Shown here in pieces: positions 3,194-34,772 of a stretch of DNA of 34,772 nucleotides. The translations under genes were made by a program, and so were the position numbers. Source of the stretch: Nemertoderma westbladi (lineage: Eukaryota > Animalia > Xenacoelomorpha). The stretch's first letter is position 1, and every line of letters begins with the position of its first letter. The stretch is from assembly GCA_032718475.1 (NCBI GenBank), contig JAUCBJ010001415.1, positions 1 to 34,772 of the forward strand, in the 5' to 3' direction. The notes beneath the pieces were generated by a model. It searched no databases. It saw only the letters and a list, made by a program, of their open reading frames with translations, and was not told the origin of the DNA.

Positions 3194-3487
3194 CTAAACA
3201 AGATGTCGCATATTTGATGGATTGAGCACTGCGTAGGTGTTTGTTTAAAATAGTCTCGTATAAATGTGTCTGGAGTCGACCACTTTGGAATTTGCCAATT
3301 TTACCACCTTCCAATCATGGAGTAATTAATACAATATTTAATTTATTTGTTTAACAATTATTTAATTTATTTTTTTTGTTTAAATGGAATGTAGCATGAT
3401 GTGTGCGTGAGTGTGGGGGGGGGGGGGGGGGGGGGGGGTGGGTAGAAAACATGAACAATCAACGTTTTTACTACTACCGGTACTTAC

Positions 3488-4989
3488 ATGTATGACTTGT
3501 TGATACAATCTGAGAGTTCTTGCACCATAGATACAGACTCCATGGCCGTACACCCACAATCTTCTTTTCGGTTAGCGTTGTAGCATTGTTTCCAATTACC
3601 TGTCTCCTTGGACACGTTGTAGTAGCTGCGAAACATCTCCTTAGAGGGGTCCGCGTTGTACACATTGTCCGACATGGGAATTCCGCTCCCAAGCATCGAC
3701 GGGGGTCTATAGTTCGCGGATAAGTTGTGGATTAAGTTTATGTCTCGCGAACTCAACACCTCACCTTTCATGTAGGTTTGTAGAGTAATTTTTATCGGGT
3801 AGTTTATCCCTATAGAATACAAGCACTCTGAGGTTTCTAATTGAGGTCCGAATGTGTGTAGATCCCATTCCAATACGTCACGGTTGTAGTCCCCATTGTC
3901 TTTCTTCCTTGATATCTGATATTCTCCCGTGACTATCTTACCCTCAAACTCATTCCCCGTAAAACTTAGAGCTTTGTGTTGCTTTTGATTTACCTTTATT
4001 ATCACGTTCGAATACATATTCGTGATGATCTCAGTAAGATCTCTTTGGAAGCGCTCGTCTGTAACTTCGTATTTGTCCCCGCCGTCGTGTGACAATACGG
4101 CCGATCCATCTTCGAAATATATGTAGATGTCCCCAGTATGTGGATGCGTAAACATCCCAACAGGGTTCGCGGTCGGACTCACTTCACTTTCCGGGAACAC
4201 CAAATGATTACCGCCGCGAGATGTGATTACCTTTGTTTTCTTTCCCCTCACATTGATATAGGTCCCTTCAAATGGGTTATATATGTAATCTCCGTCTTCT
4301 TTAAAAGTTTCCCATTTCTTTTTACCCTGGTCGTTGTAGACCGCACTCTTACCTCCATTACCTTTGATAACAATTCTCTCGTAAATCGATTTCTCGAAAG
4401 AGAAGCATTCATGCACCCTATCGAATGAAGCTTTCTCGAAGTCAACGCCATCTATTGTTACTGCATGGAACTGTATTTTGTAATTCCTATTGTGGGAATA
4501 ATCCCGGCAGATGTCGCTGGATTCTATCACTCCTTTTCCTGATAAAATCATTATGTTACAATTTCCGATATGCATATCCTGCACTGTAAAATCTTTGTCA
4601 CAAGTTGTGCCGTTACATAACGCCTGCGTGATTTCCCGCCACCCGTCGCCATGCCTCTCTGTCACATCGTCTTTCACTATGTGTATGGCTATAAAATACC
4701 GCTGCTTCGCTGTAGATAACGTCACCAAAATATCGGGAATGCAGGGACATTGTCTCAACTTGAGGATTTCTAAGTCTTGTTCATTTTGGCCCGTAGATTC
4801 GCCTAAAGGCCACTCCAACAACGGTGACTGCGGTGTGTCTATCAGCGTACCGAAGGCTGTTTTTCCACCTACCGTAACTCGCACCCTGTATTGGCCACGA
4901 AATCCCCCCTTTAAAGGTTCTGGCCTCAGCGGTATTTGATCTTCAGTCTTGCAGTATGATTCCGCTTTTGTCAGTTCCAATTCATTTAT
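3488..4989 (-). CDS. CATSPERB: CATSPERB-like gene, large coding exon 2 (1502 nt)
   Basis: Acceptor gtttacAG|ATAAATGAA, donor TACAT|GTAAGT (phase 2), open frame of 500 codons. The segment NYRPPSMLGSGIPMSDNVYNADPSK...SKETGNWKQCYNANRKEDCGCT...SDCINK matches my recollection of the CATSPERB C-terminal ectodomain (NYRPPSxLG..IP.TDN.Y.ADPSK...SKKTG.FKQC.N...REEC.CT...SDC.EK). Confidence 0.88.
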
Positions 4990-5328
4990 CTGTAAACATC
5001 AATAATATTTTACTTTATGCTTGCAGTATGGGTGATGGGGGGGGGGGGGGGGGGGGGGGGGTACATACAAAAACCATGTAGCTGATAGTTAACTAAATTG
5101 CTGTTCTATTTATAAAATTTATGATGTAAACGTTAGTAGTTTTTAACAAACTGTTTGCAACAGTTTTTACAATAGTATGCCTAGTTAAATACTAATGTTC
5201 AATGTTACTACATCAATAACCATATGTGGGTTCAATCAGATTTCAGTATTTAAGATAATGTTTATATTATTAATTTTATTTTTTACTTTACATCATTGCT
5301 CAGTATGTCCCTAAGCACTAAATTTACT

Positions 5329-6731
5329 ATATAATATGTCCACATTGTCCAGTATAATACGTCCGTCCACATTGTCCAGTATAATATGTCCGTCCACATT
5401 GTCCAGTATAATATGTCCGTCCACATTGTCCAGTATAATATGTCCGTCCACATTGTCCAGTATAATATGTCCGTCCACATTGTCCAGTATAATATGTCCG
5501 TCCACATTGTCCAGTATAATATGTCCGTCCACATTGTCCAGTATAATATGTCCGTCCACATTGTCCAGTATAATATGTCCGTCCACATTGTCCAGTATAA
5601 TATGTCCGTCCACATTGTCCAGTATAATATGTCCGTCCACATTGTCCAGTATAATATGTCCGTCCACATTGTCCAGTATAATATGTCCGTCCACATTGTC
5701 CAGTATAATATGTCCGTCCACATTGTCCAGTATAATATGTCCGTCCACATTGTCCAGTATAATATGTCCGTCCACATTGTCCAGTATAATATGTCCGTCC
5801 ACATTGTCCAGTATAATATGTCCGTCCACATTGTCCAGTATAATATGTCCGTCCACATTGTCCAGTATAATATGTCCGTCCACATTGTCCAGTATAATAT
5901 GTCCGTCCACATTGTCCAGTATAATATGTCCGTCCACATTGTCCAGTATAATATGTCCGTCCACATTGTCCAGTATAATATGTCCGTCCACATTGTCCAG
6001 TATAATATGTCCGTCCACATTGTCCAGTATAATATGTCCGTCCACATTGTCCAGTATAATATGTCCGTCCACATTGTCCAGTATAATATGTCCGTCCACA
6101 TTGTCCAGTATAATATGTCCGTCCACATTGTCCAGTATAATATGTCCGTCCACATTGTCCAGTATAATATGTCCGTCCACATTGTCCAGTATAATATGTC
6201 CGTCCACATTGTCCAGTATAATATGTCCGTCCACATTGTCCAGTATAATATGTCCGTCCACATTGTCCAGTATAATATGTCCGTCCACATTGTCCAGTAT
6301 AATATGTCCGTCCACATTGTCCAGTATAATATGTCCGTCCACATTGTCCAGTATAATATGTCCGTCCACATTGTCCAGTATAATATGTCCGTCCACATTG
6401 TCCAGTATAATATGTCCGTCCACATTGTCCAGTATAATATGTCCGTCCACATTGTCCAGTATAATATGTCCGTCCACATTGTCCAGTATAATATGTCCGT
6501 CCACATTGTCCAGTATAATATGTCCGTCCACATTGTCCAGTATAATATGTCCGTCCACATTGTCCAGTATAATATGTCCGTCCACATTGTCCAGTATAAT
6601 ATGTCCGTCCACATTGTCCAGTATAATATGTCCGTCCACATTGTCCAGTATAATATGTCCGTCCACATTGTCCAGTATAATATGTCCGTCCACATTGTCC
6701 AGTATAATATGTCCGTCCACATTGTCCAGTA
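5329..6731. repeat. 27-bp near-perfect tandem array, about 52 copies
   Basis: Unit gtccacattgtccagtataatatgtcc. Confidence 0.98.
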
Positions 6732-6805
6732 TGTGCTCGCGTAAACATTATATTCACATGACGTCATTCGAATACACACTATGACTATTTCACTATTCTA
6801 AAAAA

Positions 6806-7116: not shown

Positions 7117-9171
7117 TAATTTTTTATACTAGCTAGTTTTTGTTACTTTTTTTTATCTTCTAGAACATATTATCTATTCATTCAATATAACAAATTTGTT
7201 CTGGAATAAAAAAACAAAAAATCTAGCTAATTTGTTAATTTTTTATTGTATGTTATCCTTATATCACATATTTAATAAAAATCACTAGCTACAATGCAAA
7301 TTTGTACAGTAGTTGTTAGTAATTGTTATTAACACTAATAAAAAAAAACACCACAAAAAAACAATTTTTTTTAAATGTTCTAGAACAAAAATTATTTGTT
7401 CTAGAACAATACTTTAACAAAAATGAACAGATGATATGTTCTAAAACATTTTTAAACATAAGTAACAAAAACTACTTTGATAACCGGAACATAAAAAAAA
7501 TCCTAATTAATTGATTTTGTTCTAGAAAAACAATTATTTGTTCTAGAACAAAATTAATAAAAAAAATGAATAGACAATATGTTGTAGAACATTTTTTTAA
7601 AAAAGCAACAAAAACTAGTTATTTGAAAAACTACTACTACTACTACTATGATCGGCATGCTGCATTGCAGCTGCATTATTAAGAATGCTGTGCCGGTTTG
7701 TCGACAAAATTGCGCCGCCACAACTCCCTATCACCCATGACATTTGCTAGATCATCCGCATCTTCAAGGCCAGTGTCCTTTAAGATGCGTCTCAAGAAAG
7801 TCATGGGCTGTCCACCTTGCTTATTCACTCCATGAGGCTGCCAAGTACAAGATTATGCACTGGCTGGTCCTCACGGCGAAAGCAATGTCCTGCAAAGCGG
7901 AGGCGATTTTGTTCTAGTGTCAAGCTTGGGGGAACCAATGAGACACCTCCAATGTTATATAGTGTCTGGTTGGAGATGTGTGCATTGTACTTGACACAAT
8001 GAACCCGGCGTAGCATTCTTGTGAATGTGCCATCCAGAGATTTGGTGTCCTCAGCAGTTAGAGCTCAGCATGGACTCCCATAGAGGAGGTCCTCACCTGA
8101 CTTCCGGATCCATGATCCCAGGTAACAGAAGTCATCCACATGCTCAAGCATACCATCTTTTGAGCTTAGGCTCATCCGGTCAGATATTTGGATCCGGGCT
8201 ACTAATGCCCAAATAATCTTGCTTTTTTATGAAATGTCTAGAACAGCGATTATTTGTTCTAGAACAAAATTTTTAAATTAAATTAATAGACAATGTGTTT
8301 GAACATTTTTAAAATAAAGGGTAACAAAAACTAGCTAGTTTAAAAAATTTGGTAGGGGTGTGCCAAAAACACAAGTACAAGAATAGACTATATTATGTTC
8401 TAGAACATTTTGCAACAAATAACAAAAACTAGCTAGGAAAACAAGAAAAAATAATTACAGTAATTTAAAATATCCTAGAACAACAATAATTTGTTCTAAA
8501 AAAATGTAAAAAAATGAATAGACAAAATGTTTTAGAACATTTAAAAAGTAACCAAAACTAGCTAATAATGTAATATCAAAAATTTGGAAGGGGGTGTGTC
8601 CAAAACACACAAGTACCAAATTGGTCAGGGGACATGACATGACATAGAGAAGTAGTCCCGAAATAATTATTGACAAAAAATTAGCTAGAATAAAAATTGG
8701 GGTGTGGGTTTTTTTATAAATTTTGTTCTAGAACAGATAATTGTTGTTCTGGAACAAAATTAATTAATTTGGTTTTTTGTTGTTATCAAAGCTAGTTTTA
8801 GTTTTCTTACTTTTTTAAAAATGTTCTAGAACATATCATCTATTCATTTTGTAAAAAGTAATGTTCTAGAACAATTATTTTTTGTTCTATAACATTAAAA
8901 AAATTGTTTTTTGTGGTGCTTTTTTTATTAGTGTTAATAACAATTACTAACAACTACTAATTTTCATTGTAGCTAGTGATTTTTATTAAATATGTGATAC
9001 AAATAATATAAAAAGTTAAAAAAATTAAAAAATTTTGCTAGTTTTTTTAGAACAAAATTTTTATATTAAATGAATAGATAATATGCTCTAGAACATTTTT
9101 GAAAAAAAGTAACAAAAACTAGCTAGTATAAAAAATTTGAGGGGGTGGGGTGGGGTGTGCCCAAAACACAG
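7075..9171. mobile_element. Foldback/MITE-like element with about 480-bp inverted arms, TA-flanked, hosting an RTE fragment
   Basis: About 7075-7565 is the imperfect reverse complement of about 8709-9171; ends TA|CTGTGTTTT...AAAACACAG|TA; internal modules built on the palindrome TGTTCTAGAACA. Confidence 0.8.
7631..8190 (-). mobile_element. RTE family A 3' fragment with a 120-bp internal deletion
   Basis: Near-identical reverse complement of about 30063-30736, with a (CTA)n tail at 7631-7648; the junction gaggacct|cctctatggg skips 120 bp of the long copy. Confidence 0.92.
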
Positions 9172-9888: not shown

Positions 9889-10409
9889 CTTACTGTGGGG
9901 TGAGCCACGAAGTGAGTGAAGCCTTAGCATATGGGTATAATTAACGAGTTGGCTGTCGTCTTCGTCGTAAATTTTTGATCGCTAATTAAACCAAACTTGG
10001 TACGTATTTAGTCCGCAAAAAGTTTAGAAAGAATTACCGGTAGTTTCAGACTTTTGATAAAATCCGAAATAAGTCGGTCAATCATTTATGAAATTAGACC
10101 AAACTTGGTAAACATGTGGTCTCTCATAGGTTTTGAAAGATGTTAATCGATGAAAGATGACACAGTCTGTCAGTCGATACCGGTAGTTTTAAGACTTTTA
10201 TTTTCATTTCCTTGGGAAAAATTGACTAAACACTAGGGAAGAGTGCCGTGCCGTAAATGCGCCTATATTTTTGAAATTGTTGAAATTTGAGAATGAGACC
10301 TGTAACCAAAACACTCCGTTTTCATGATTCAGATTGGTAGTAAACCATTCTAGGAGGAGACAGTTCATACGTTAGTAGACGCGGGCCTTTGCGCGATTTC
10401 GCGCTTGTT
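9889..10409 (+). mobile_element. Interspersed repeat, Helentron/HINE-like candidate (copy 1)
   Basis: Shares the head gtgggg.gagccacgaa...ttagcata.gggta and core ccaaacttggta with 31890-32060; the core module is duplicated; ends in a GCGCG-attt-CGCGC hairpin followed by TTGTT. The class is an inference. Confidence 0.5.
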
Positions 10410-12776: not shown

Positions 12777-12821
12777 CATATCTTGTGTAATAGAAGTGAT
12801 TTGTTGATGTTGAGGGATACC

Positions 12822-13251
12822 TACTACTACTGTTGGCATGCTGCATTGCAGCTGCATGGTATATATTACGTATATATTAAGAATGCTGTGCCGGCTTGTC
12901 GACAAAATCGCGCCGCCACAACTCCCTATCACCCATGACATCTGCTAGATCATCCGCATCTTCAAGGCCAGTGTCCTTTAAGATGCGTCTCAAGAAAGTC
13001 ATGGGCTGTCCACCATGCTTATTCACTCCATGAGGCCGCCATAGCACAAGATTATGCACGCTGGCCTCACGGCGTCATGTCAAGTTAGGGGAGACTAATG
13101 AGACACCTCCACAATGTTGAATGTTATATATATATAGAGTCTGGTTGGAGATGTGTTCATTGAACTTGACACAATGAACCCGATGCAGCATTCTTGTGAA
13201 AGTGCCATCCAGAGATTTGGTAGTCCTCTGCAGTTAGAGCCCAGAATGGAC
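12822..13251 (-). mobile_element. RTE family A 3' fragment, more degraded
   Basis: Reverse complement of about 30295-30735 with indels; (CTA)n tail at 12822; ORF 12877-13059 reproduces the RTE C-terminus. Confidence 0.9.
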
Positions 13252-13390
13252 ACACATATAAGAGTTTATAAAAGTTTTTATAAGATTATATGGGTCCTTA
13301 ACACAGTACCCAGGACCAAGGGCGTCCATATCCCAGAACGAAGGGGGTCCTGGTTACAGGACCAGGTTGATGCCCTTATTAAGAAGAATG

Positions 13391-15450: not shown

Positions 15451-15643
15451 CCAATTATGTATCAAAATCCAAATTATTTGGGAAGAGTCCGGCAGGGGCG
15501 CCGTAATAAGAGTGATGTTCCTTCCCTCTGGCTCTAATAAGGTGTGACTTAACTAAATTGTTTCAAGTCATTTCCTATATTTCAATCAACTATTTTTTGT
15601 ATTAACTTTGTATACACCGTAGAAGTATCATTATATCTGTTTA

Positions 15644-17534
15644 CCACTCACTCACTCCTTCTCCACTCACTCCACCACTCACTCACTCCTTCTCCACTCA
15701 CTCCACCACTCACTCACTCCTTCTCCACTCACTCACTCACTCCTCTCCACTCACTCCACCACTCACTCACTCACTTCTCCACTCACTCCACCACTCACTC
15801 ACTCCTTCTCCACTCACTCCACCACTCACTCACTCCTTCTCCACTCACTCCACCACCCACTCACTCCTTCTCCACTCACTCCACCACTCACTCACTCCTT
15901 CTCCACTCACTCACTCACTCCTCTCTCCACTCACTCCACCACTCACTCACTCCTTCTCCACTCACTCCACCACTCACTCACTCCTTCTCCACTCACTCCA
16001 CCACTCACTCACTCCTCCTCCACTCACTCCACCACCCACTCACTCCTCCTCCACTCACTCCACCACTCACTCACTCCTTCTCCACTCACTCCACCACTCA
16101 CTCACTCCTCTCTCCACTCACTCCACCACTCACTCACTCCTCTCTCCACTCACTCCACCACTCACTCACTCACTCCTCCACTCACTCACTCACTCCTTCT
16201 CCACTCACTCCACCACTCACTCACTCCTCTCTCCACTCACTCCACCACTCACTCACTCCTTCTCCACTCACTCCACCACTCACTCACTCCTCTCCACTCA
16301 CTCCACCACCCACTCACTCCTACTCCACTCACTCCACCACTCACTCACTCCTTCTCCACTCACTCCACCACTCACTCACTCCTTCTCCACTCACTCCACC
16401 ACTCACTCACTCCTTCTCCACTCACTCCACCACTCACTCACTCCTTCTCCACTCACTCCACCACTCACTCACTCCTCTCTCCACTCACTCCACCACTCAC
16501 TCACTCCTTCTCCACTCACTCCACCACTCACTCACTCCTTCTCCACTCACTCCACCACTCACTCACTCCTTCTCCACTCACTCCACCACCCACTCACTCC
16601 TTCTCCACTCACTCCACCACTCACTCACTCCTTCTCCACTCACTCCACCACTCACTCACTCACTCCTTCTCCACTCACTCACTCCACCACTCACTCACTC
16701 CACCACTCACTCCTTCTCCACTCACTCCACCACTCACTCACTCCTTCTCCACTCACTCCACCACTCACTCACTCCTTCTCCACTCACTCCACCACCCACT
16801 CACTCCTTCTCCACTCACTCCACCACTCACTCACTCCTTCTCCACTCACTCCACCACTCACTCACTCCTTCTCCACTCACTCCACCACTCACTCACTCCT
16901 TCTCCACTCACTCCACCACTCACTCACTCCTTCTCCACTCACTCCACCACTCACTCACTCCTTCTCCACTCACTCACTCACTCCTTCTCCACTCACTCCA
17001 CCACTCACTCACTCCTTCTCCACTCACTCCACCACTCACTCACTCCTTCTCCACTCACTCCACCACCCACTCACTCCTTCTCCACCACTCACTCACTCCT
17101 TCTCCACTCACTCCACCACTCACTCACTCACTCCTTCTCCACTCACTCACTCCACCACTCACTCACTCCTTCTCCACTCACTCCACCACTCACTCCTTCT
17201 CCACTCAATCCACCACTCACTCACTCCTTCTCCACTCACTCCACCACTCACTCACTCCTTCTCCACTCACTCCACCACTCACTCACTCACTCACTCACTC
17301 CTTCTCCACTCACTCCACCACTCACTCACTCCTTCTCCACTCACTCCACCACTCACTCACTCACTCTCTCCACTCACTCCACTCACTCACTCCTTCTCCA
17401 CTCAATCCACTCACTCACTCACTCCTCCTCCACTCACTCCACCACTCACTCACTCCTCTCTCCACTCACTCCACCACTCACTCACTCCACCACTCACTCA
17501 CTCCACCACTCACTCCTTCTCCACTCACCCACTC
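15644..17534. repeat. 31-bp CACT-rich satellite, about 60 copies
   Basis: Unit ccactcactcactccttctccactcactcca with slippage variants. Confidence 0.97.
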
Positions 17535-17735: not shown

Positions 17736-17993
17736 TGGGCTCCCCCATAACGGTATTCCCCCCCCCCCCCATAACGGTATGGGGCCCCCCCGTTACGGTA
17801 TGGGCTCCCCCGTAACGGTATGGGGTCCCCCGTAACGGTATGGGGTCCCCCGTAACGGTATGGGGTCCCCCGTAACGGTATGGGGTCCCCCGTAACGGTA
17901 TGGGGTCCCCCGTAACGTATGGGGTCCCCCGTAACGGTATGGGGTCCCCCCATAACGGTATGGGCTCCCCCACGTAACGGTATGGGCTCCCCC
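17736..17993. repeat. 20-bp GC-rich tandem repeat, about 12 copies
   Basis: Unit ccccgtaacggtatggggtc. Confidence 0.95.
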
Positions 17994-19279
17994 TTAATTA
18001 GTTATATTAGACTGTTGAAGCGCCCCCTCATATTGTCGGGAATTATCCAACGACCCTGTTCGGATAGTGCTGTGAATGTGTAGTGAATCGGAAAATGTAT
18101 TGATAACTAACATGAATGCTAGACCAGTTTGCGGGTCTCTGTTCTCACTTGGGGTACATTTAATTCCCCTAAACGGCTAAATGTCACATTTATTTTATAT
18201 TGTCAAAGTTCTTTATCTCCAAACTAATCTCCAGTTTTGCAGGACTTTCTCTCAGTATATCGCACACATATACCTTAGCTAAGCGACTTATTTTGATTAA
18301 AATGAAGTCAACATATATCCTTGGTAGTGTGGCATTTTTTACAAATCTTTTGTCTGCCTGGCGGTAATCAGTTTTCTCGTGATGCAAAACAAAACAAAGT
18401 CAATGCAGTAACTGCGACAGCGACGTTGTTGTTCAATTCCCCCAATATTTCGACGGCCACTTCAAATTGGCATTTGAGCGCTGGTCCAGGCGTAAAAGCT
18501 TGTATTTTCTGGCTGAATATTTCTATTGTGTTACTGTGGTTCCTAATGCTAATCCAATGGTTGGGGCCTGACAAGGTGTGGCACTTGGTAGTAACGAGAT
18601 TAAGTTTTGGTTTGTTTGTGGCGCCCCAGCTCTGTTCTCTTTCACTCACATTGATTGTTCATTTTAGTTAAATTCAATGAACTTACTCGAGTTCATCCAT
18701 CCCTCGATCCATGTTTCCTTTTTAGGTAATTGCCTTGCACCGTATGGCTATACTCTCCAGAAATCAGGATCTAAGATCCCCGATAATTCCCCCCTCAGCG
18801 GGGTTCTATTTTTTCTAGCAGTTCGAGTACGTAGTACTTCGTAATCTAATTACTGACATCACATCACTGACTGACTGCGGTCACAGTCCTTCATAAAGGT
18901 CATATAAATAAATAGAGTGACAAATTGAGGTGAGTTGCTTAAGCAAAAGTATGGAAATAGGTTGAAAATAATATTTAGAATAAAATAAATAATAAATGAA
19001 AAGAAATGAAAAGAAAAGAAAACTCCATTAATTATAATTACTTTAAGCTGTACGTACTTTACGTTTATTTGGGAAGGAACTCAAAAATACAATTTAATAT
19101 TAGAAGAAAAACCCAAATTATTGCTCCGACTGACTGTAGTTTGTTTGTTAGTGCTTAATGCTTACGATGCAAAATATGATACAGTTTGCGTGCTTAATAA
19201 ATAATACGCACGGTCCGTTTATCACGCTCCTTTTCTACTGTTAATAAGTCGTAAGTAATTTCTTAAAATATATAATTAA

Positions 19280-21388: not shown

Positions 21389-23801
21389 TATAAAAGTAAC
21401 AGCAAGCGCGATAATCTTTAGTATAAAAGTAACAGCAAGCGCGATAATCTTTAGTATAAAAGTAACAGCAAGCGCGATAATCTTTAGTATAAAAGTAACA
21501 GCAAGCGCGATAATCTTTAGTATAAAAGTAACAGCAAGCGCGATAATCTTTAGTATAAAAGTAACAGCCAGCGCGATAATCTTTAGTATAAAAAAAAGTA
21601 ACAGCAAGTGCGATAATCTTTAGTATAAAAGTAACAGCCAGCGCGATAATCTTTAGTATAAAAGTAACAGCCAGCGCGATAATCTTTAGTATAAAAGTAA
21701 CAGCAAGTGCGATAATCTTTAGTATAAAAGTAACAGCCAGCGCGATAATCTTTAGTATAAAAGTAACAGCCAGCGCGATAATCTTTAGTATAAAAGTAAC
21801 AGCAAGTGCGATAATCTTTAGTATAAAAGTAACAGCCAGCGCGATAATCTTTAGTATAAAAGTAACAGCCAGCGCGATAATCTTTAGTATAAAAGTAACA
21901 GCAAGTGCGATAATCTTTAGTATAAAAGTAACAGCAAGTGCGATAATCTTTAGTATAAAAGTAACAGCCAGCGCGATAATCTTTAGTATAAAAGTAACAG
22001 CAAGTGCGATAATCCTTAGTATAAAAGTAACAGCCAGCGCGATAATCTTTAGTATAAAAGTAACAGCAAGTGCGATAATCTTTAGTATAAAAGTAACAGC
22101 AAGTGCGATAATCTTTAGTATAAAAGTAACAGCAAGCGCGATAATCTTTAGTATAAAAGTAACAGCAAGTGCGATAATCTTTAGTATAAAAGTAACAGCA
22201 AGCGCGACTTATCTTTAGTATAAAAGTAACAGCAAGTGCGATAATCTTTAGTATAAAAGTAACAGCAAGCGCGATAATCTTTAGTATAAAAGTAACAGCA
22301 AGCGCGATAATCTTTAGTATAAAAGTAACAGCAAGTGCGATGATCTTTAGTATAAAAGTAACAGCCAGCGCGATAATCTTTAGTATAAAAGTAACAGCAA
22401 GTGCGATAATCTTTAGTATAAAAGTAACAGCAAGCGCGATAATCTTTAGTATAAAAGTAACAGCAAGTGCGATAATCTTTAGTATAAAAGTAACAGCAAG
22501 TGCGATAATCTTTAGTATAAAAGTAACAGCAAGCGCGATAATCTTTAGTATAAAAGTAACAGCAAGCGCGATAATCTTTAGTATAAAAGTAACAGCAAGT
22601 GCGATAATCTTTAGTATAAAAGTAACAGCAAGCGCGATAATCTTTAGTATAAAAGTAACAGCAAGCGCGATAATCTTTAGTATAAAAGTAACAGCAAGTG
22701 CGATAATCTTTAGTATAAAAGTAACAGCAAGCGCGATAATCTTTAGTATAAAAGTAACAGCAAGTGCGATAATCTTTAGTATAAAAGTAACAGCAAGCGC
22801 GATAATCTTTAGTATAAAAGTAACAGCAAGTGCGATAATCTTTAGTATAAAAGTAACAGCAAGCGCGATAATCTTTAGTATAAAAGTAACAGCAAGTGCG
22901 ATAATCTTTAGTATAAAAGTAACAGCAAGCGCGATAATCTTTAGTATAAAAGTAACAGCAAGTGCGATAATCTTTAGTATAAAAGTAACAGCAAGCGCGA
23001 TAATCTTTAGTATAAAAGTAACAGCAAGTGCGATAATCTTTAGTATAAAAGTAACAGCAAGTGCGATAATCTTTAGTATAAAAGTAACAGCAAGCGCGAT
23101 AATCTTTAGTATAAAAGTAACAGCAAGTGCGATAATCTTTAGTATAAAAGTAACAGCAAGCGCGACTTATCTTTAGTATAAAAGTAACAGCAAGTGCGAT
23201 AATCTTTAGTATAAAAGTAACAGCAAGCGCGATAATCTTTAGTATAAAAGTAACAGCAAGTGCGATAATCTTTAGTATAAAAGTAACAGCAAGCGCGATA
23301 ATCTTTAGTATAAAAGTAACAGCAAGTGCGATAATCTTTAGTATAAAAGTAACAGCAAGTGCGATAATCTTTAGTATAAAAGTAAAAGCAAGCGCGATAA
23401 TCTTTAGTATAAAAGTAACAGCAAGTGCGATAATCTTTAGTATAAAAGTAACAGCAAGCGCGATAATCTTTAGTATAAAAGTAACAGCAAGTGCGATAAT
23501 CTTTAGTATAAAAGTAACAGCAAGTGCGATAATCTTTAGTATAAAAGTAACAGCAAGCGCGATAATCTTTAGTATAAAAGTAACAGCAAGTGCGATAATC
23601 TTTAGTATAAAAGTAACAGCAAGCGCGATAATCTTTAGTATAATAGTAACAGCAAGTGCGATAATCTTTAGTATAAAAGTAACAGCAAGTGCGATAATCT
23701 TTAGTATAAAAGTAACAGCAAGTGCGATAGTCTTTAGTATAAAAGTAACAGCAAGTGCGATAATCTTTAGTATAAAAGTAACAGCAAGTGCGATAATCTT
23801 T
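21389..23801. repeat. 33-bp satellite, about 73 copies
   Basis: Unit tataaaagtaacagcaag(c/t)gcgataatctttag. Confidence 0.98.
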
Positions 23802-24034
23802 AACTTCATATTAATATATTAAAGTACGTAAATACAATGAAATAATATGCATAAGTTCTAAACGTTTCTATTTTTACACAAAATCATCACCAGTAATACA
23901 AAATTTGGTCCAAATGTTGCTAACTGCAAGGTTTGAATTTATAAAATTAGCGCCCAAAATTAATAATAATAATAATTAATATATTTTACAGTATTTATGC
24001 GATTTATACAGTAGCTCTGAACCGTTGTTTATAT

Positions 24035-26603
24035 CAGAGACAGAATACGATACGATACGAAAACCGATTTTTTATAAATTGCAATTATACTGTTTGGTTG
24101 AAATATCGGCAACTATAACATCCTTATCTCGGTCATCAGTAACAGATCTCATTACCCCACCCCTAAGGACATGATGATTCCCCCGGTGACCTGGGCACGT
24201 AAGTTTCTTTATGATTCCCCTGGTGACCTGGGCACGTAAGTTTCTTTATGATTCCCCCGGTGACCTGGGAACGTAAGTTTCTTTATGATTCCCCCGGTGA
24301 CCTGGGCACGTAAGTTTCTTTATGATTCCCCCGGTGACCTGGACACGTAAGTTTCTTTATGATTCCCCCGGTGACCTGGGCACGTAAGTTTCTTTATGAT
24401 TCCCCCGGTGACCTGGGCACGTAAGTTTCTTTATGATTCCCCCGGTGACCTGGGCACGTAAGTTTCTTTATGATTCCCCCGGTGACCTGGGCACGTAAGT
24501 TTCTTTATGATTCCCCCGGTGACCTGGACACGTAAGTTTCTTTATGATTCCCCCGGTGACCTGGGAACGTAAGTTTCTTTATGATTCCCCCGGTGACCTG
24601 GGCACGTAAGTTTCTTTATGATTCCCCTGGTGACCTGGGCACGTAAGTTTCTTTATGATTCCCCTGGTGACCTGGGCACGTAAGTTTCTTTATGATTCCC
24701 CCGGTGACCTGGGCACGTAAGTTTCTTTATGATTCCCCCGGTGACCTGGGCACGTAAGTTTCATTATGATTCCCCCGGTGACCTGGACACGTAAGTTTCA
24801 TTATGATTCCCCCGGTGACCTGGACGCGTAAGTTTCTTTATGATTCCCCCGGTGACCTGGACACGTAAGTTTCTTTATGATTCCCCCGGTGACCTGGGCA
24901 CGTAAGTTTCATTATGATTCCCCCGGTGACCTGGGCACGTAAGTTTCATTATGATTCCCCCGGTGACCTGGACACGTAAGTTTCTTTATGATTCCCCCGG
25001 TGACCTGGGCACGTAAGTTTCTTTATGATTCCCCCGGTGACCTGGGCGCGTAAGTTTCATTATGATTCCCCCGGTGACCTGGACACGTAAGTTTCTTTAT
25101 GATTCCCCCGGTGACCTGGGCACGTAAGTTTCTTTATGATTCCCCCGGTGACCTGGGCACGTAAGTTTCTTTATGATTCCCCCGGTGACCTGGGCAAGTA
25201 AGTTTCATTATGATTCCCCCGGTGACCTGGACACGTAAGTTTCTTTATGATTCCCCCGGTGACCTGGGCACGTAAGTTTCATTATGATTCCCCCGGTGAC
25301 CTGGACACGAAAGTTTCTTTATGATTCCCCCGGTGACCTGGGCACGTAAGTTTCTTTATGATTCCCCCGGTGACCTGGGCACGTAAGTTTCTTTATGATT
25401 CCCCCGGTGACCTGGGAACGTAAGTTTCTTTATGATTCCCCCGGTGACCTGGGCACGTAAGTTTCTTTATGATTCCCCCGGTGACCTGGGCACGTAAGTT
25501 TCTGATTCCCCCGGTGACCTGGGCACTTAAGTTTCTTTATGATTCCCCCGGTGACCTGGGCACGTAAGTTTCTTTATGAATCCCCCGGTGACCTGGGCAC
25601 GTAAGTTTCATTATGATTCCCCCGGTGACCTGGGCACGTAACTTTCCTTATGATTCCCCCGGTGACCTGGGCAGTGGGCACGTAAGTTTCTTTATGATTC
25701 CCCCGGTGACCTGGGCACGTAAGTTTCTTTATGATTTTCGTATTTCGTGTCGCAGTATTTTATTCGTATCGAATTTCGTATCGTATTATAAAAATTGACT
25801 TCGTATCTTATAATACGAAAGAATATTTTTCGTATTTCGTATCGGATTTTCGTATCTTATTATTTTGTAAATATTAATATTTTTAACAGTCAAACAGAGA
25901 CACACCATTTATTTCTTTACATGTGAATAAATGAGTTTGCAGCTTACAGTTTTATTACCCATGTCAATAAAATTGTAACAAAGGAGGATCGTTAATCGTA
26001 GAATAATGATAAAATATAATATAATTACAGTTTAAATAAACTTGAGGAGAACTCTAATTGCGCCTACTGTACATGTACAAGGCCTTGACGTTATGATAAG
26101 TCTTTCTAGTGAGAGAATAAAAAAATAATACATTTATTTTGAAATAAAACATAGTTTTATTCTAGTATTAGTTTGACTTGGAAATTGAAGTATTGCATTT
26201 TTTTCAATATTGGTAATAATGCACAGTCAACAGTCCATAAATATCGGCAGTAGGTATAGGTAAAGCTACAGTATGCTTAAAGTCAAAGTGGCATGGTAAT
26301 ATGGAAACGCCTACTATTGGGCCGTGTTGCATAACGTCCTTATGGATGTTGTAGCCAGTAGTCACACTATTGCTGTAACAGCAAGCATATTGGAGCATTG
26401 AAATTAAAAATATTTGCCTATATTAGATATTTATATGATTTTCTAAGTGTAATACAAAATCCCCTTATTTTATCAACTCTTAGATAAAATACGATACGAA
26501 AAAATACGAAATTTTTTTCGTATTTCGTATCGTATCTTGTATTTTTCGTATCGTATCGTATTTCCTCAAAATTGCATTCGTGTCGTATCGAATCCTGTCC
26601 CTG
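24035..26603. mobile_element. Non-autonomous hAT-type transposon with 8-bp TSD
   Basis: TIRs CAGAGACAGAATACGATACGATACGAA and revcomp CAGGGACAGGATTCGATACGACACGAA; exact TSD GTTTATAT at 24027-24034 and 26604-26611; many TACGA/TCGTA subterminal motifs; no transposase ORF. Confidence 0.88.
24174..25736. repeat. 37-bp satellite, about 42 copies, inside the hAT element
   Basis: Unit atgattcccccggtgacctgggcacgtaagtttcttt. Confidence 0.98.
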
Positions 26604-27900: not shown

Positions 27901-29054
27901 AAGCTTTTATTAAAGCGTGTATCCACCCTCTATCATTTTGGATTCGTTGATATCGCTGGAAAGGTGGCCTAGCAAGAATTCCAAATCTATATATACAATT
28001 TCGTTGAAAAGTCTCCATCTTACGTATTGTGGATGAGTGTTCGAAAATTTTGGAACCCTATCAATATCATTAATAAACAAATTAAAATCCTGTGTTCAAT
28101 AATATTTTGTCATTTGGACATATCGAGCAGAGGAAAAAAACATGTTGGTAAATTCTATCTCTTTTCAAACACCTGTGCAACTTAACATCCCAGTAGGACC
28201 GAAATCGAAACTTATTGTTAACTTTAGTTTTTTTAACTATTAGTAACTCGGTAAATAGAAGAGAATATGGCAGACAGCTGTATACCGCGTACCAGTACAG
28301 TCCGAGTCCATGTTGTCTACAAATCTTAATGAGATTGCACGAAATTTGAAACAAAGATAGGTGATTAATGGGTGAGCCAGAATTTTTATTTTTGCTTTCA
28401 TTCTTTAGTTACAAGCGTTTAACAAAAGTGTCTCAGGCGAAATTGCACCAATTACACCGCAGTTATTCTTCTACCTTATAGCTGTCTGTTGGTACCAATG
28501 GAAAGCTGGCCATGCAAGGATTCCAAATATGTAACTTTTTTTTTTCTAATTTGTAACATATAATATAATAATCTTAAATTATAAATTAAAAAGATGTGCA
28601 TCAAAAATAACAAAGTTAATTCCGCCACCACACAAATATCATCGGACCTACCACCAAAGCACCAGAAGGATATGTTGGAGCTCAGAGGCAAGGGATCAGT
28701 ACCGATCAGGAAGGTCAGACCCCCGCAGACCGGCACCGTCCCCAAATCCGAGCGCCCTCCATGGCCGCTTACCACCACGCAGGCACAGGGAGCTCGAGCG
28801 CAGAAGCGCGAACTGTATGTTAATATCTAACACAATTGGAATTTCGTTGAAAAATAGCTGAGATATGAGCGTTCAAATGTTAAATTAGTTTTGCATCTGC
28901 GGTCTGTTTAATTCTATTGGATAGATACACCATATTCTGGTACATTCTGGTTTATATATGGATAACTACATACTAGTTAGTATTATTATAGAGGAATTGC
29001 ATTGTTGCTCAGCTATTTATGGGGTAAATATAATGTTCAAGAATGATGTAATAA

Positions 29055-30736
29055 GACTGGCGAATGGCTGACAACCCAACCTTCGTTCCTGATAACTTTA
29101 TAGAAGTAAAAGTGTCTGAGTCTGTACTCCCAGATATTCCCATTGGCGATATCTCCTTTGCAGAAGTGAAGGCTGCTGCAAAGAGCATTAAGACCAATCG
29201 CGCCAGTGGAGTAGATGGTGTTCCCCCTGAGGTCTTTAAAATACCTGAGTGTTTAAAGCTCATCTATCCCATCATAGTAGACATGTACCGAACAACGAGA
29301 GTCCCACAAGAAATGAAAACAAATGAGTTGGTGCCAGTTCCCTAGAAGGGCAACCTAACACTCTATGGTTCTTTTCGGGGAATCTCATTGATCTCGATTG
29401 CTGCAAAGCTATACAATAGAATTCTATTAAATCGCATCAGGGATCCCATTGAGAGACTGCTCCGTGGAAATCAGAATGGGTTCCGTATAGGTCGTCTGAC
29501 CATGGAGCCCATTTTGGCACTTAGAAGGATAATTGAAGAGTTATCAAAAAAGAAAGACAGGCATATGGCTGTTATCTTTGTTGACTTCTTCAAAGCCTTT
29601 GACTCAGTCTCTCGCTCACGTATGTTCAGCATACTTTCATTATATGGGATTCCTGATAAAATTATTGCAGCAATCAGATCAGTATACGATGGTTCGACAA
29701 CATTTGTGTCTACTGTTGACGGTGACACAGAACCATTTGAAGTGTTATGGGGCGTCCTCCAGGGAGACACACTTGCACCATTCTTGTTCATAATTGGTGT
29801 TGACTATGTTCTACGCATGTCCTTAGATCATCATAATGATAATGGGGTGATGATAACTCCACCTACTGGCTCCAGAAGTCGAGGAAATCCTGCCAAGTAC
29901 CTAACTGATCTAGACTTTGCTGATGACTTAGGAGTACTCTCAGAATCACTAGAGGGAGCCCAACGGCTCCTCAGCTCATTAGAACATGCTGCTTCTAGTG
30001 TTGGTCTTTTTATTAACTCCAGAAAGACCAAAATTTTGACAGTTAACTTTGAAAGTCCTCAGCAAATCTCTGATCGGATGAGCATAAGCTCAAAAGATGG
30101 TATGCTTGAGCATGTGGATGACTTCTGTTACCTGGGATCATGGATCCGGAAGTCAGGTGAGGACCTTCGAATACGTAAGGGAAAGGCATGGGCAGCCTTG
30201 AATAGGCTTTCCAGGATTTGGAAGTCACCGAGAATTAATCGGAAACTTAAGGTCCGGTTATTTAGAGCAGCAGTAGTTCCAGTACTCCTCTATGGGAGTC
30301 CATGCTGGGCTCTAACTGCTGAGGACACCAAATCTCTGGATGGCACATTCACAAGAATGCTACGCCGGGTTCATTGTGTCAAGTACAATGCACACATCTC
30401 CAACCAGACACTATATAACATTGGAGGTGTCTCATTGGTTACCCCAAGCTTGACACTAGAACAAAATCGCCTCCGCTTTGCAGGACATTGCTTTCGCCGT
30501 GAGGACCAGCCAGTGCATAATCTTGTACTTTGGCAGCCTCATGGAGTGAATAAGCATGGTGGACAGCCCATGACTTTCTTGAGATGCATCTTAAAGGACA
30601 CTGGCCTTGAAGATGCGGATGATCTAGCAAATGTCATGGGTGATAGGGAGTTGTGGCGGTGCAATTTTGTCGATAAGCCGGCACAGCATTCTTAAAAATG
30701 CAGCTGCAATGCAGCATGCCGATCCTAGTAGTAGTA
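29055..30736 (+). mobile_element. 5'-truncated RTE-type non-LTR retrotransposon (family A); RT domain with an in-frame stop
   Basis: ORFs 29064-29345 and 29388-30695 are one frame split by TAG (VPVP*KGNL). RT motifs FVDFFKAFDSV, GVLQGDTLAPFLF and LDFADDL; RTE-like C-terminus RLRFAGHCFR...LVLWQP; about 30-nt 3' UTR and (TAG)n tail; no endonuclease domain. Confidence 0.93.
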
Positions 30737-31500
30737 TCATCAACATGAGTCCTGATCTGATTTTCGGGACAATCTTGCACTCCGGCATGGGACCCCCTTT
30801 CCTACCGCGGAAGGTTTAAGGATTGTGCGGGTTTATTTACACTGCACACTACACACACACTGGGTTGAAAATCGGATTTTGAAATTTTGGATTTTGAAAA
30901 TCGTATTTGGACACATAATGGTCTCTGCATCGTCTGGTCGTGGTGTCTGGCTTACAGTCCCTGCTGAATCGCTCCGATTTTAAAACGCATCACTTTATAA
31001 TTCCTTATTATTATTGACTTGAAGTAAATAGTTATTCAATTAGGAAATGTTGGTTTGTTAAAAAATTATGAACGAATCTCAATTTCAGAATAAATATTCG
31101 TATATCATTGAATGATAAAATATACTTTATTTCCCTTAAGAATAATTGATATACGAAATGAATAATTAATGTTCGCAATTGACTGCAGCGTGTTGTACAG
31201 GGGATGGGAGGTTGGCGGAGTATTTCCCATCAAGTGGCCTGTATTCACTCGCAATTAATGTAAACTAAAAAGTGTATTTCTCTGAAAATAATTTTCCTAT
31301 TCCCCACATACAACTTCTATAACCATAGCAAACTATTATATTAGATGCGCATGGATGGCCTCCTTGCGCACTTAAACGGTCGTGTTGTGATGTGAGAAGC
31401 TTTTAATTGCCGTTTCAACTCTGTTCGGTGGCACGGTAGGATTTCTAATTTATTGGTCATTATCTTAATTTAGTGGTGCAGTTTTGTTAGGGTAAGAGGT

Positions 31501-31572
31501 GGGGTTCGTGGCACACTGCTGATGAGGAGAACCACGAATCCCAGGGTTCAGTGTTTAAATCTCCGAAACCCT
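31501..31572 (+). ncRNA. Hammerhead ribozyme candidate with rearranged (non-circularly permuted) topology
   Basis: CTGATGA 31519-31525; stem II GGAGA 31526-30 / TCTCC 31560-64; GAAA 31565-68; stem III ACCCT 31568-72 / AGGGT 31543-47; GTT triplet 31546-48; stem I CAGTGT 31549-54 / ACACTG 31513-18; extra helix GGGGTTCGTGG 31501-11 / CCACGAATCCC 31532-42. Confidence 0.75.
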
Positions 31573-31885
31573 TTTATTTTTATAAAATTTATTACTTATA
31601 CTTACCTTTTTCGGCGGACAAAATGTCCTATATTTTTCGTAATTTATGGGATAGCCTATTTCGTGCAATACTTACCGGAACCTGTAGTTACTGTATGGTT
31701 TGGTGCAATTTTTCTTGTGGTAGTTGGGTTGGGTTATGTAGCACTAAAATCGATTTGGTATTTTGTTTTTTGATGGGCCTAGTGCCTGAGTACTAACAGT
31801 GGCCCAAGTGGCCCTAAATGCTAGGTAGTATCTGAGGAATAGACCCCATGTCCATTTTATTGTTTTAATATTAATTGCCGTTGGC

Positions 31886-32090
31886 CTTTTATGTGGGGCG
31901 AGCCACGAAAGTAAGCGAGCTTAGCATACGGGTACCACTAACTCAATCGTTGTGTCTGTCGTTCTGTTGTGTTCAATTTTAAACGTTAATAACTCAGCCA
32001 AATGTTAATGAAATCTATCCAAACTTGGTACACATGTTAGTCTGGCAAAAGTTTAGAAATTATCCACGTTGAATTTCCGCGTGGCCTTCG
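31886..32090 (+). mobile_element. Interspersed repeat, Helentron/HINE-like candidate (copy 2)
   Basis: Direct similarity to 9893-10030; 3' boundary uncertain. Confidence 0.5.
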
Positions 32091-32777
32091 AGAAGCTAAG
32101 ATAATAGCAGTTAATTAGGTAATTAAGTTGATTACGGTAAAAACTGCATTTTCAACCTGCCTCTTAAAGGATATTAATTATGTTCTAGTATAAGATTTAA
32201 ATAATTATACTTAACAATTATACAGCTGTATTCTCCCTACCCCAATACAGTCCATTATAGTTTTTAATTAGTTCAAGTGATTTGCTTTAAGTAATGTGTT
32301 TTTAATTGATCTAAACGTAATTAACTTATTAAAATGCCCCGTCTCCAGCTAGCTATAGCTCCCTCCTTCGTTGGCATGCCTAGCCTACCTTGGAAGGGGA
32401 ACCAGTCCAACCAGACCTCACCTCTACTCAAAGGCGAGGCAGCATTGTAATGAGTCCGACTAATAAGCCAGCTTGTTATAGTGTTTAGCTTACAAAATGA
32501 TTGGCCGAGGACTGTAATAATCATGATTCTTCAGATAAGTTATTGATTTCTTTGTTGGTTAATTAAATTAATTAAATAATATGCTATCTTTAATATTTTT
32601 GCTAGAAATTTGTGCTGTTTGTATATTTGTGAATCGCTTCCAGTTGTATTTTGGGTTATATTAAAAATAAATATAATATATTACTTTAAAAAAAAATTTT
32701 TTATGTTAATACCTCTACCTTTCGTCAATCCTGTATGCGCATTTGGGTTGGGGTGGTGCAGATTAAGAGGAAGGTTC

Positions 32778-32808
<31 letters not shown>

Positions 32809-34772
32809 TTTTCCCTCTCTTTGATTTACTGGTGTTTGGTTAAATCTCTTAGATACCGAGTTTGTGATACAGTAGAATCGCTCACTATTAATCTGTATCT
32901 CATAACTGAACCTCGTGCTGCACGAAGGCCCCACGACGTGTCAATATACGTATTTACGGTATCTGAATCATTGTGTTGTGATGAAATCCTCTGATAACAA
33001 ACAAAGATGTTAAATACGATTATTCGAATAACTGCGGTAAATAGCACCTAATAACTCTGAATCGCAATAATGTTAAAGGCAATATCTCTGAGTCGTCCAA
33101 CCGCGGTCCCTGGATATCCCAACAATGCTGCATACTGTGTTGTATATCCTGTGGCCCAATCTTATTGCAACTAAAACTTCGATTGGCAGGTGACAGGATC
33201 GCGATTGACTGTTACGTACAGGAGGCATCGTGAGTGGTACGGAACTGTGTGGATCGTTATAGAGTAACGGCGGTATTGTGTATGATTACTGCGGGATTAG
33301 CCCCGTGTGAGGCAGGCACCTGCGTGCCGGGATCCGTGGTTTCAGCTTGCCAACCCCCCCCCCCCCCCCCCCCCCCCCCCCTTTTATTCTATCGCCGGTC
33401 ACGGTTGCCTGATCTGGGGATATAAGTCCCCCCACTACAATCATCACAGCCAAATTGAATTATAGAAACAAATTAGAATAATTTCGGTAGTTGCATTTTC
33501 AATGGTTCAATATGAATTCGATTGGTTGGTTATGCAAATTTATAAGATACCCACATTGTAATATGTACTATGTTTGTACCAAATTGCTTTCACGCTTTTT
33601 CTGGGTCTAGCTGTGACGTGACTTGGTTGGCGTTTGTTTCGCTAAACCTGGCTAACATCGGTAAACAGTCTCCAGGGGCGCTGCACGTGACTCATTTTCT
33701 TAAATATTGTTATCCTGGCACGACGGACTTTCATACCATCTCAATTTCTTTTAAGACATCTCTTCATCCTATCGGGTATTGCTATATGTCCCTTCCGTAC
33801 CAACTTCTATTTCACTTGCGTTCAATGTGCGCCACCATCTGAAGTGCTGATAAGTTGCCATTTTGTAACATAATTATTGGTACAGCTCTCGTATCAATCC
33901 TCGCGTTAATACGGATATACTGCGGTTACTGTAGCCATAGCAACAAGCTAGTTATATGGAGGGACCACTTCCACAACTAATTCCTTATCCTAGCAGCAGG
34001 GGAAGTAACATTCATTCACTAAAAGGGGTTGATTACTACGGTTGTGGCACTTATATTACCATGAAATGCATTAGGATTGCATCAATTCCTGGTGGTACCC
34101 CTTAGAAAGTGCGCCACGGTATTCCGACCTCAGATGGCGACTTATTTCGGGAGGCTGGAAGTTAAACAGATCGTTCCTTTCTGGTCCGCAGAGATGCATA
34201 CTATGACGTTGGGAACCCACTTTTATCGTGCGGTTCATTAAGCTAGTTGGGAGGAGAAGCTTGTCTATTTGTTTTTATTGGATATTGAAACACTTTAATG
34301 CTCCTTTAGTTATCTGCACTGGAATTGACAGAAAGTGGTCCTATTCATTTTATTACTCAAGTAACCTTTGGATCTCTGTTACCAGTTACCACTAATTAAT
34401 AATCGTCCTACCCTTATGTAAAATAAATTATATATATTCAATATACGTTTTGTATCAATTAACACACAGAATGTCACACCAAACTGTAATTTGATCATTC
34501 ATTTGAAGATAATTAAAAATGTTACTTTAGGTAATTCACTTAATGACACTCATATTACTTGGTGTGAAATGTACTTATAATGAGAAGAATAAGTTAAATG
34601 TGATGGTTGCATCAACCACCTTATTCTGTATCATATTATTATAAGATGAAACCTGACCGGGACTTGGGATCCCAATGGTGAAGTTTTTATGACAAGTCCG
34701 ACGTTAAAAGCACCGCAGTATCATTACATTTACACGCAAGCAAAGCAATCAGCAATATGTAGGAAATTCAAT

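Follow-up and report, generated by a model that had tools for sequence, protein, structure and literature searches.

The window, by which we mean the whole stretch of 34,772 nucleotides analyzed here, contains two CATSPERB-like coding stretches, a series of minisatellite arrays, copies of an RTE-type LINE, and a short repeated insert that carries a candidate hammerhead ribozyme. Both CATSPERB-like stretches lie on the minus strand. The first, at positions 3484-4998, forms one uninterrupted frame of roughly 500 codons, which is unusually long (Pfam CATSPERB_C, E 1.7e-30), while the second, at 1744-1965, matches the same family with an E value of 6.8e-4. A search for relatives of the 3484-4998 frame found none and returned only an Atlas lead at 0.76. 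Most long frames in the window are accounted for by minisatellite arrays at 412-1758, 5338-6732, 15643-17534, 17766-17997, 21389-23802, and 24174-25736, with periods of 22, 27, 31, 20, 33, and 37, respectively.

The reverse transcriptase nearest to the insert belongs to an unrelated RTE-type LINE copy at 29055-30736 (+), which ends approximately 680 bp upstream of it. This copy has very high depth in all four of the public DNA runs described below, a 3' end with GTA repeats near position 30736, and a reverse transcriptase frame at 29388-30695 (+; Pfam RVT_1, E 8.5e-23) with an in-frame stop just upstream. Related pieces are found on the minus strand at 7638-8190 and 12807-13265. Positions 7638-8088 are 97.8% identical to the 29055-30736 copy, and relatives elsewhere are 43-57% identical. 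A GC-rich block of about 297 bp (28531-28828), located inside another repeat, is skipped or replaced in many contigs from all four runs and is probably a separate short insertion.

The insert occupies positions 31415-31870 (+) and is 456 bp in length. It is bounded by an exact 12-bp direct repeat (31403-31414 and 31871-31882, +) that we read as a target-site duplication. The 12-mer occurs in the window only these two times, and a repeat of 12 bp or longer between the two border zones arose in only 3 of 2000 shuffles. The insert is T-rich (37.5% T, 39% GC) and is treated as non-coding, as neither of the two frames (each about 100 codons long) that run through the ribozyme has a Pfam match. It carries neither a poly(A) tail nor the GTA-repeat end of the RTE copies, and its folding energy is like that of shuffled sequences (z -0.35). 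Only one unit is present, with no tandem or pseudo-terminal repeat arrangement at the locus, and no second ribozyme was found within the insert. A different high-copy repeat (31892-32340), which is 74-85% alike to positions 9894-10138, starts 10 bp after the right target duplication.

The insert is multi-copy. Contigs from four public DNA runs (X1-X4, representing three samples) were aligned to positions 28500-33500, and a step in depth coincides with the insert in all four. The flank at approximately 30840-31340 is single-copy, with depths of 15, about 45, 25, and 8 in X1 to X4, respectively. In X1, which may be the source of the assembly, a contig covering 31463-31765 has a depth of 367 relative to 15 in the flank, or about 24-fold. 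In X2-X4, the depth at 31599 summed over contigs, which is not equivalent to copy number, ranges from several hundred to about 1000 times that of the flank. The high-depth X1 contig differs from the window by five substitutions (31599, 31614, and 31616-31618), all outside the ribozyme, and by six gaps, five of which have no position among the variants listed. Among those variants there is no substitution within 31501-31572.

In X2, X3, and X4, which represent two samples, the single-copy contig stops matching the window at 31402, the base preceding the left repeat, and continues past this point for 64, 50, and 64 letters, respectively. Provided that the joint is placed leftmost and that the contig terminates shortly inside the repeat that begins at 31892, this stop is what would be expected of an empty site, and we infer that two other samples appear to lack the insert at this position. 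Four X4 contigs extend to the left of 31412 with other sequence, and therefore the window copy appears to be truncated at its left end. A short open frame (31408-31473, +) crosses this end and has its stop codon at 31471-31473, 28 nucleotides before the ribozyme. As a weak lead, this frame could represent the last codons of the reading frame of the parent element.

The candidate ribozyme is located at 31501-31572 (+). In the scheme of Eckert, Friedrich, Weinberg, and Weinberg (2023), a hammerhead is made up of three blocks (C, S, and G), for which six orders are named, types I-III being the circular ones (PMC10085705). Type CSG is defined by the 5' to 3' order of block C (CUGAnGA), block S (the cut site), and block G (GAAA) (PMC10085705), and a pair-by-pair check shows that 31501-31572 has a complete core and four helices in this order. 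The element begins with the 5' strand of helix P (31501-31511), which forms ten Watson-Crick pairs and one G.U pair with 31532-31542 and connects stems I and II at their far ends. At the top of this helix, C31512 lies opposite A31531. Block C (31513-31530) follows and consists of the 5' strand of stem I (31513-31518), CUGAUGA (31519-31525), and the 5' strand of stem II (31526-31530). The 3' strand of helix P then continues with no spacer into block S (31543-31554), which includes the 5' strand of stem III (31543-31547), U17 (U31548), and the 3' strand of stem I (31549-31554). A five-nucleotide linker, UUAAA (31555-31559), leads from stem I to stem II, and block G (31560-31572) is composed of the 3' strand of stem II (31560-31564), GAAA (31565-31568), and the 3' strand of stem III (31568-31572). 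All of these strands are read on the plus strand.

All pairs of stem I (6 of 6), stem II (5 of 5), and stem III (5 of 5) are Watson-Crick. The core pairs are G31526-C31564 (10.1-11.1) and A31568-U31547 (15.1-16.1), and the NUH triplet is GUU (31546-31548). A sequence-only reading of this DNA had listed the same core nucleotides, the three fully paired stems, and the extra 11-bp helix, and had stated that nearly all of the 72 nucleotides are paired or part of the core. The pair check agrees on each point and gives a count of 65 of 72. That reading had also noted that the cut strand lies inside loop II and had proposed that helix P serves as the contact between stems I and II. Both features match type-CSG hammerheads as described in the sections of PMC10085705 consulted, as does the place of the cut predicted after U31548, between 31548 and 31549, by analogy with the cut sites shown for the type-CSG RNAs CSG-1 and CSG-2. 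In contrast, its mention of rearranged hammerheads from Xenopus repeats finds no counterpart in those sections, where the sources are metatranscriptomes, soil metagenomes, and one bacterium. The arrangement was considered as a new topology and rejected as such, since the C-S-G order has already been named and validated (PMC10085705, in the same sections).

A C-S-G descriptor in which the three core stems are scored and helix P is left out of the requirements finds a single match in the window, which is 31501-31572. The earlier reading had proposed a search with this strand order. With the same descriptor, 1000 dinucleotide shuffles searched on both strands gave 19 matches at the loosest setting (at least four pairs in stem I, two in stem II, and three in stem III) and none when at least four pairs were required in each stem. 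Its expectation that standard descriptors would miss the element also held. Rfam reports no hammerhead either in the whole window, where the best matches have E values of 0.05 and are located away from 31501-31572, or in positions 31380-31900, where all matches have E values of 2.2 or worse. Similarly, the published type-CSG descriptor as we re-implemented it limits the loop between stems II and III to 10 nucleotides and has no match in the window at a limit of 10 or 11, but finds 31501-31572 at a limit of 12, the loop being 12 nucleotides long. The 10-nucleotide limit is a search setting rather than a structural criterion for type CSG. Canonical hammerheads of types I-III have all of the core nucleotides and the three core stems in common with 31501-31572. 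However, their strand orders are circular permutations around a nested three-way junction, whereas here stems I and II cross P and III and thus form pseudoknots. We conclude that 31501-31572 almost certainly has the type-CSG hammerhead fold.

Type CSG is known from two unique sequences (five in total) of soil-metagenome DNA with no known host organism, according to the consulted sections of PMC10085705. Both representatives, CSG-1 and CSG-2, cleave at the predicted site in vitro during transcription, and the published rates are 0.004 and 0.026 per minute (PMC10085705). The authors call the covariation modest and consider biological relevance to be less well supported for this type (PMC10085705). 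In the window sequence, 13 of 23 comparable pairs are changed on both sides relative to CSG-1 (four in stem I, two in stem II, three in stem III, and four in helix P) and none is broken. Relative to CSG-2, the figure is again 13 of 23 (four, three, three, and three, respectively), also with none broken. These changes were read by eye and are compatible with either homology or convergence. The stem lengths of 6, 5, and 5 bp are the same in all three RNAs, and the five-nucleotide linker of CSG-2 is identical to UUAAA at 31555-31559. In contrast, helix P is 11 bp here and only 7-8 bp in CSG-1 and CSG-2, the spacer between P and stem III is absent here and two nucleotides in the published RNAs, and the cut-site triplet is GUU rather than GUC. 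At the top of helix P, the 24th position compared, C31512 and A31531 stand where CSG-1 and CSG-2 have a U.G pair. The settings also differ, because the window copy lies in a repeated, duplication-flanked insert of an animal genome and its cleavage is predicted, whereas CSG-1 and CSG-2 are soil-metagenome sequences. On the analogy with these two RNAs, the ribozyme copy at 31501-31572 very probably cleaves itself, with the predicted cut after U31548.

In the literature searched, the term 'type-CSG' is used only by Eckert et al. (PMC10085705). Among the titles and abstracts covered, a scope that stops short of subscription journals, we found no report that places type CSG in the genome of any animal or in Naiads, a group of Penelope-like elements considered below. 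Scans for the type-CSG motif gave 0, 0, and 38 loci in three scans of viral contigs, 12 in metagenome contigs, and 10 in prokaryote genomes. None of these 60 loci has a stem I of at least four pairs together with stems II and III. The scans also missed the published soil sequences and are thus uninformative on absence. Two matches to phage records, of 31 bases in an AT-rich stretch, were judged to be due to chance.

According to Craig et al. (2021), Naiads have no canonical hammerheads and in this respect differ notably from other Penelope-like elements (PMC8557442, in the parts consulted). In those elements, hammerheads sit in pseudo-terminal repeats, where they presumably serve to cut tandem precursor RNA (PMC8557442). 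Eight Naiad families are nonetheless marked 'half core', with core halves 35-50 nucleotides apart (PMC8557442), and the gap of 39 nucleotides between the core halves at 31501-31572 falls within this range. We examined the Naiad consensus records in the supplement of PMC8557442 by a text search, which misses motifs split by a line end, and read pairings by eye; 60 of 81 places with the GAAA-block motif were covered, in a range spanning the Naiad records, and at least 53 rows make up the list of Naiads. Eight consecutive nematode records have 3' tails in which a complete C-S-G fold, helix P included, can be read: the record before Naiad_Parc, Naiad_Parc, Naiad-1_Nbra, Naiad-2_Nbra, Naiad-3_Nbra, Naiad_Hcon, Naiad_Hpol, and, identified by its position, Naiad_Asuum.

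In these nematode Naiad folds, as read by eye in the part of the supplement covered, stem I has 5-6 bp, stem II 4-5, stem III 6-12, and helix P 9-18, with a linker of 2-5 nucleotides between stems I and II and a spacer of 0 to about 15 nucleotides between P and stem III. The stem sequences are unrelated to one another, and the folds lie in T-rich 3' untranslated sequence. Naiad_Parc, from the free-living Pristionchus, is the closest match in geometry and has that of the window copy, with a P of 11 bp, C opposite A at its top, stems I and II of 6 and 5 bp, no spacer to stem III, a five-nucleotide linker ending in AAA, and two 20-nucleotide loops. Naiad_Hpol carries a GUU triplet, as at 31546-31548. 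All eight C-S-G folds found are from nematodes. Among the 'half core' families, all three nematode ones have the fold, and it was not seen by eye for the other five in the records covered. In several non-nematode Naiads (supplement of PMC8557442, near parts 8, 10-12, and 24), GAAA precedes CUGAUGA. The C-S-G fold is not named in the parts of PMC8557442 consulted. Our comparison of the insert with Naiads rests on fold and geometry, core sequence aside, and in these respects the window element is a hammerhead with the fold that nematode Naiads carry in their 3' tails. Truncation at the 5' end is typical of Naiads (PMC8557442), and the insert likewise appears to be truncated at its left end. However, no Naiad reading frame was found with the insert copy, and there is no tandem pseudo-repeat at the locus.

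We consider it probable that the insert is of Penelope-like origin, given that the only named elements in which we have read the C-S-G fold are Naiads. An origin from Naiads specifically is a more tentative proposal that we hold at somewhat below even chances. A Penelope-type reverse transcriptase with GIY-YIG was sought by comparing 74 and 14 frames of the window with Pfam, and none was found; as noted above, the insert appears to be left-truncated. Direct assignment to Naiads is also weakened by the probable identity of the host. Loss of CatSper is reported for nematodes (PMC5553355, in the part consulted), and the CATSPERB-like exons of this genome therefore make a nematode host improbable, whereas all eight Naiad folds of this order read here are from nematodes.

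The insert might instead be a short element that carries a real type-CSG hammerhead but is mobilized by a LINE (either RTE or a LINE with a restriction-like endonuclease) rather than being Penelope-like. All elements that move by target priming can show 5' truncation and target duplications of varying length, features that fit this explanation too, an abundant RTE-type family is active in the genome, and a host outside the nematodes would be less surprising. We nevertheless regard LINE mobilization as unlikely. The insert ends in neither a poly(A) tail nor the GTA repeat of the RTE, the insert and the RTE copies have no common sequence in the window, and the named elements with a readable C-S-G fold, by eye and in the records covered, are Naiads only. 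The RTE copy at 29055-30736 was itself rejected as the carrier of the ribozyme, because copies of it stop near position 30736 and are followed by single-copy DNA before the insert.

The insert can also be compared with animal non-LTR retrozymes, for which our sources are Cervera and de la Pena (2020; PMC7229834) and Li et al. (2026; bioRxiv 10.64898/2026.07.22.740005), each consulted in part. Retrozymes are short (150-450 bp), low-GC, non-coding, multi-copy elements with one hammerhead, are flanked by target duplications of more than 4 bp, and commonly occur as solo monomers (PMC7229834; bioRxiv 10.64898/2026.07.22.740005). They are cut to monomers and circles and appear to be derived from Penelope-like repeats (PMC7229834; bioRxiv 10.64898/2026.07.22.740005). 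The insert resembles them as a short non-coding multi-copy unit (456 bp, 39% GC, at least 24-fold depth) with a 12-bp duplication. However, retrozymes as defined in these sources have type I hammerheads, whereas the insert carries type CSG. Retrozymes also form tandem arrays and their circles are highly self-paired, while the insert is a single unit and, with its z-score of -0.35, is not. On balance, a type-CSG hammerhead with a predicted cut after U31548, residing in a repeated insert that is the tail of a Penelope-like element (of Naiad type or a non-autonomous derivative), seems to us a fairly likely description of the locus.

The fold suggests how such an RNA might assemble. ViennaRNA models no pseudoknots, and therefore stems I and II, which amount to about -6 kcal/mol each as isolated duplexes, are outside its fold model. 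The nested helices that it does find are P and III, which are adjacent hairpins with a 20-nucleotide loop each. Helix P has a pair probability of 1.0 in all four of the contexts folded. Stem III has probabilities of 0.86, 0.84, 0.46, and 0.43, and its decrease to about 0.45 in the longer contexts is due to competition from other pairings. In longer folds, the flanks 31489-31500 and 31570-31580 can pair with each other, and the resulting outer helix is in competition with the terminal part of stem III. One base is missing at 31494, within this flank, in high-depth contigs of the family. The outer helix could be a switch or noise.

Thus, two neighboring hairpins may form first, with the loop of P holding the CUGAUGA block and the loop of III holding the cut site and GAAA. 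The two loops would then kiss via stems I and II to create an ordinary hammerhead core. Helix P and the UUAAA linker would hold stems I and II together at their far ends and substitute for the contact between loops 1 and 2. Since each of the kissing helices would span only about half a turn, no true knot should be needed. In hammerhead chemistry, nucleotide 17 uses its 2'-OH to attack its own phosphate, with G12 as base and G8 as acid, and the products carry a 2',3'-cyclic phosphate and a 5'-OH. A U at position 17, as in this copy, is a less favored cut site than C.

The active form might alternatively be intermolecular. If P stacks on III so that their loops point apart, hairpin P of one RNA would kiss hairpin III of another, either in a dimer or between neighboring units of a tandem transcript, an arrangement that fits either class of element. 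The absence of a spacer between P and stem III is in keeping with such stacking, as is the observation that the short linkers of type CSG join points that are far apart in the crystal structure (PMC10085705). The slow rates published for type CSG (PMC10085705) and the activity of amphibian retrozyme hammerheads as dimers (PMC7229834 / bioRxiv 10.64898/2026.07.22.740005, in the parts consulted) point in the same direction. However, in the nematode Naiad folds read by eye, the spacer varies from 0 to about 15 nucleotides while the linker that connects stem I with stem II stays at 2-5, which suits a compact single molecule. Moreover, an 11-bp P should be about long enough to run back along the stack of stems II and III, zero-nucleotide crossovers between side-by-side helices would be ordinary, and CSG-1 and CSG-2 cleave during transcription (PMC10085705). 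We judge an intermolecular active form to be rather unlikely and tentatively favor kissing hairpins within a single molecule. Finally, a match that arose by chance, or a relic that has lost the ability to cut, as might be suspected from the 19 loose matches in 1000 shuffles and from the 60 of 60 public-collection loci that proved to be chance matches without helices, is very improbable, given that no match of this quality arose in the shuffles even with the 11-bp P left uncounted, that every core position is intact, that the architecture is that of two validated RNAs with all pairs kept (by eye), and that the ribozyme is free of substitutions in the high-depth X1 contig among the variants listed.

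If the ribozyme is the tail hammerhead of a Penelope-like element, then successive tail cuts in copies arranged wholly or partly in tandem would free RNA of unit length, which could be closed into circles, as in animal retrozymes. The predicted cut lies within the insert, with 134 nucleotides before it and 322 after it. Because the insert spans the cut site, the template RNA must have been either uncut or re-joined. For one Penelope-like element, cleavage is not needed for in vitro insertion and uncut RNA is the main template (PMC11167929, in the part consulted), a result that speaks against the reading given here. The insert may have been copied from uncut or re-joined RNA by target-primed reverse transcription, with copying truncated at the left end and the 12-bp duplication left behind.

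The C-S-G wiring itself was already known. What is new, within the literature searched, is that it occurs in a likely mobile element of an animal and, as it appears, in the Naiads of nematodes as well. We propose, at strength close to but short of even, that type CSG is the working ribozyme of a Penelope-like lineage. Under this proposal it is the so far unrecognized hammerhead of nematode Naiads and is also carried by a young family that is still on the move in an animal that has CatSper and belongs to a different phylum, whether by common ancestry or by horizontal transfer, and the soil sequences of type CSG would be fragments of such elements from soil animals. One fold appears to answer both the lack of a host for type CSG (PMC10085705) and the description of Naiads as being without canonical hammerheads (PMC8557442), as far as the consulted parts of these papers extend. 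The nematode Naiad tails and the window copy would give type CSG its first known biological home, and together they would raise the class from two to about 11 distinct sequences with four covarying helices.

These elements would also mean that a class of eukaryotic ribozymes escapes both Rfam and the descriptors now in use. At 72 nucleotides, the RNA lends itself to cheap direct tests and would offer a compact kissing-hairpin hammerhead for structural work and RNA engineering. If our proposal is true, retroelements draw on a single catalytic core in several forms that differ in their wiring, which would constitute a natural series for studying the origins of RNA permutation.
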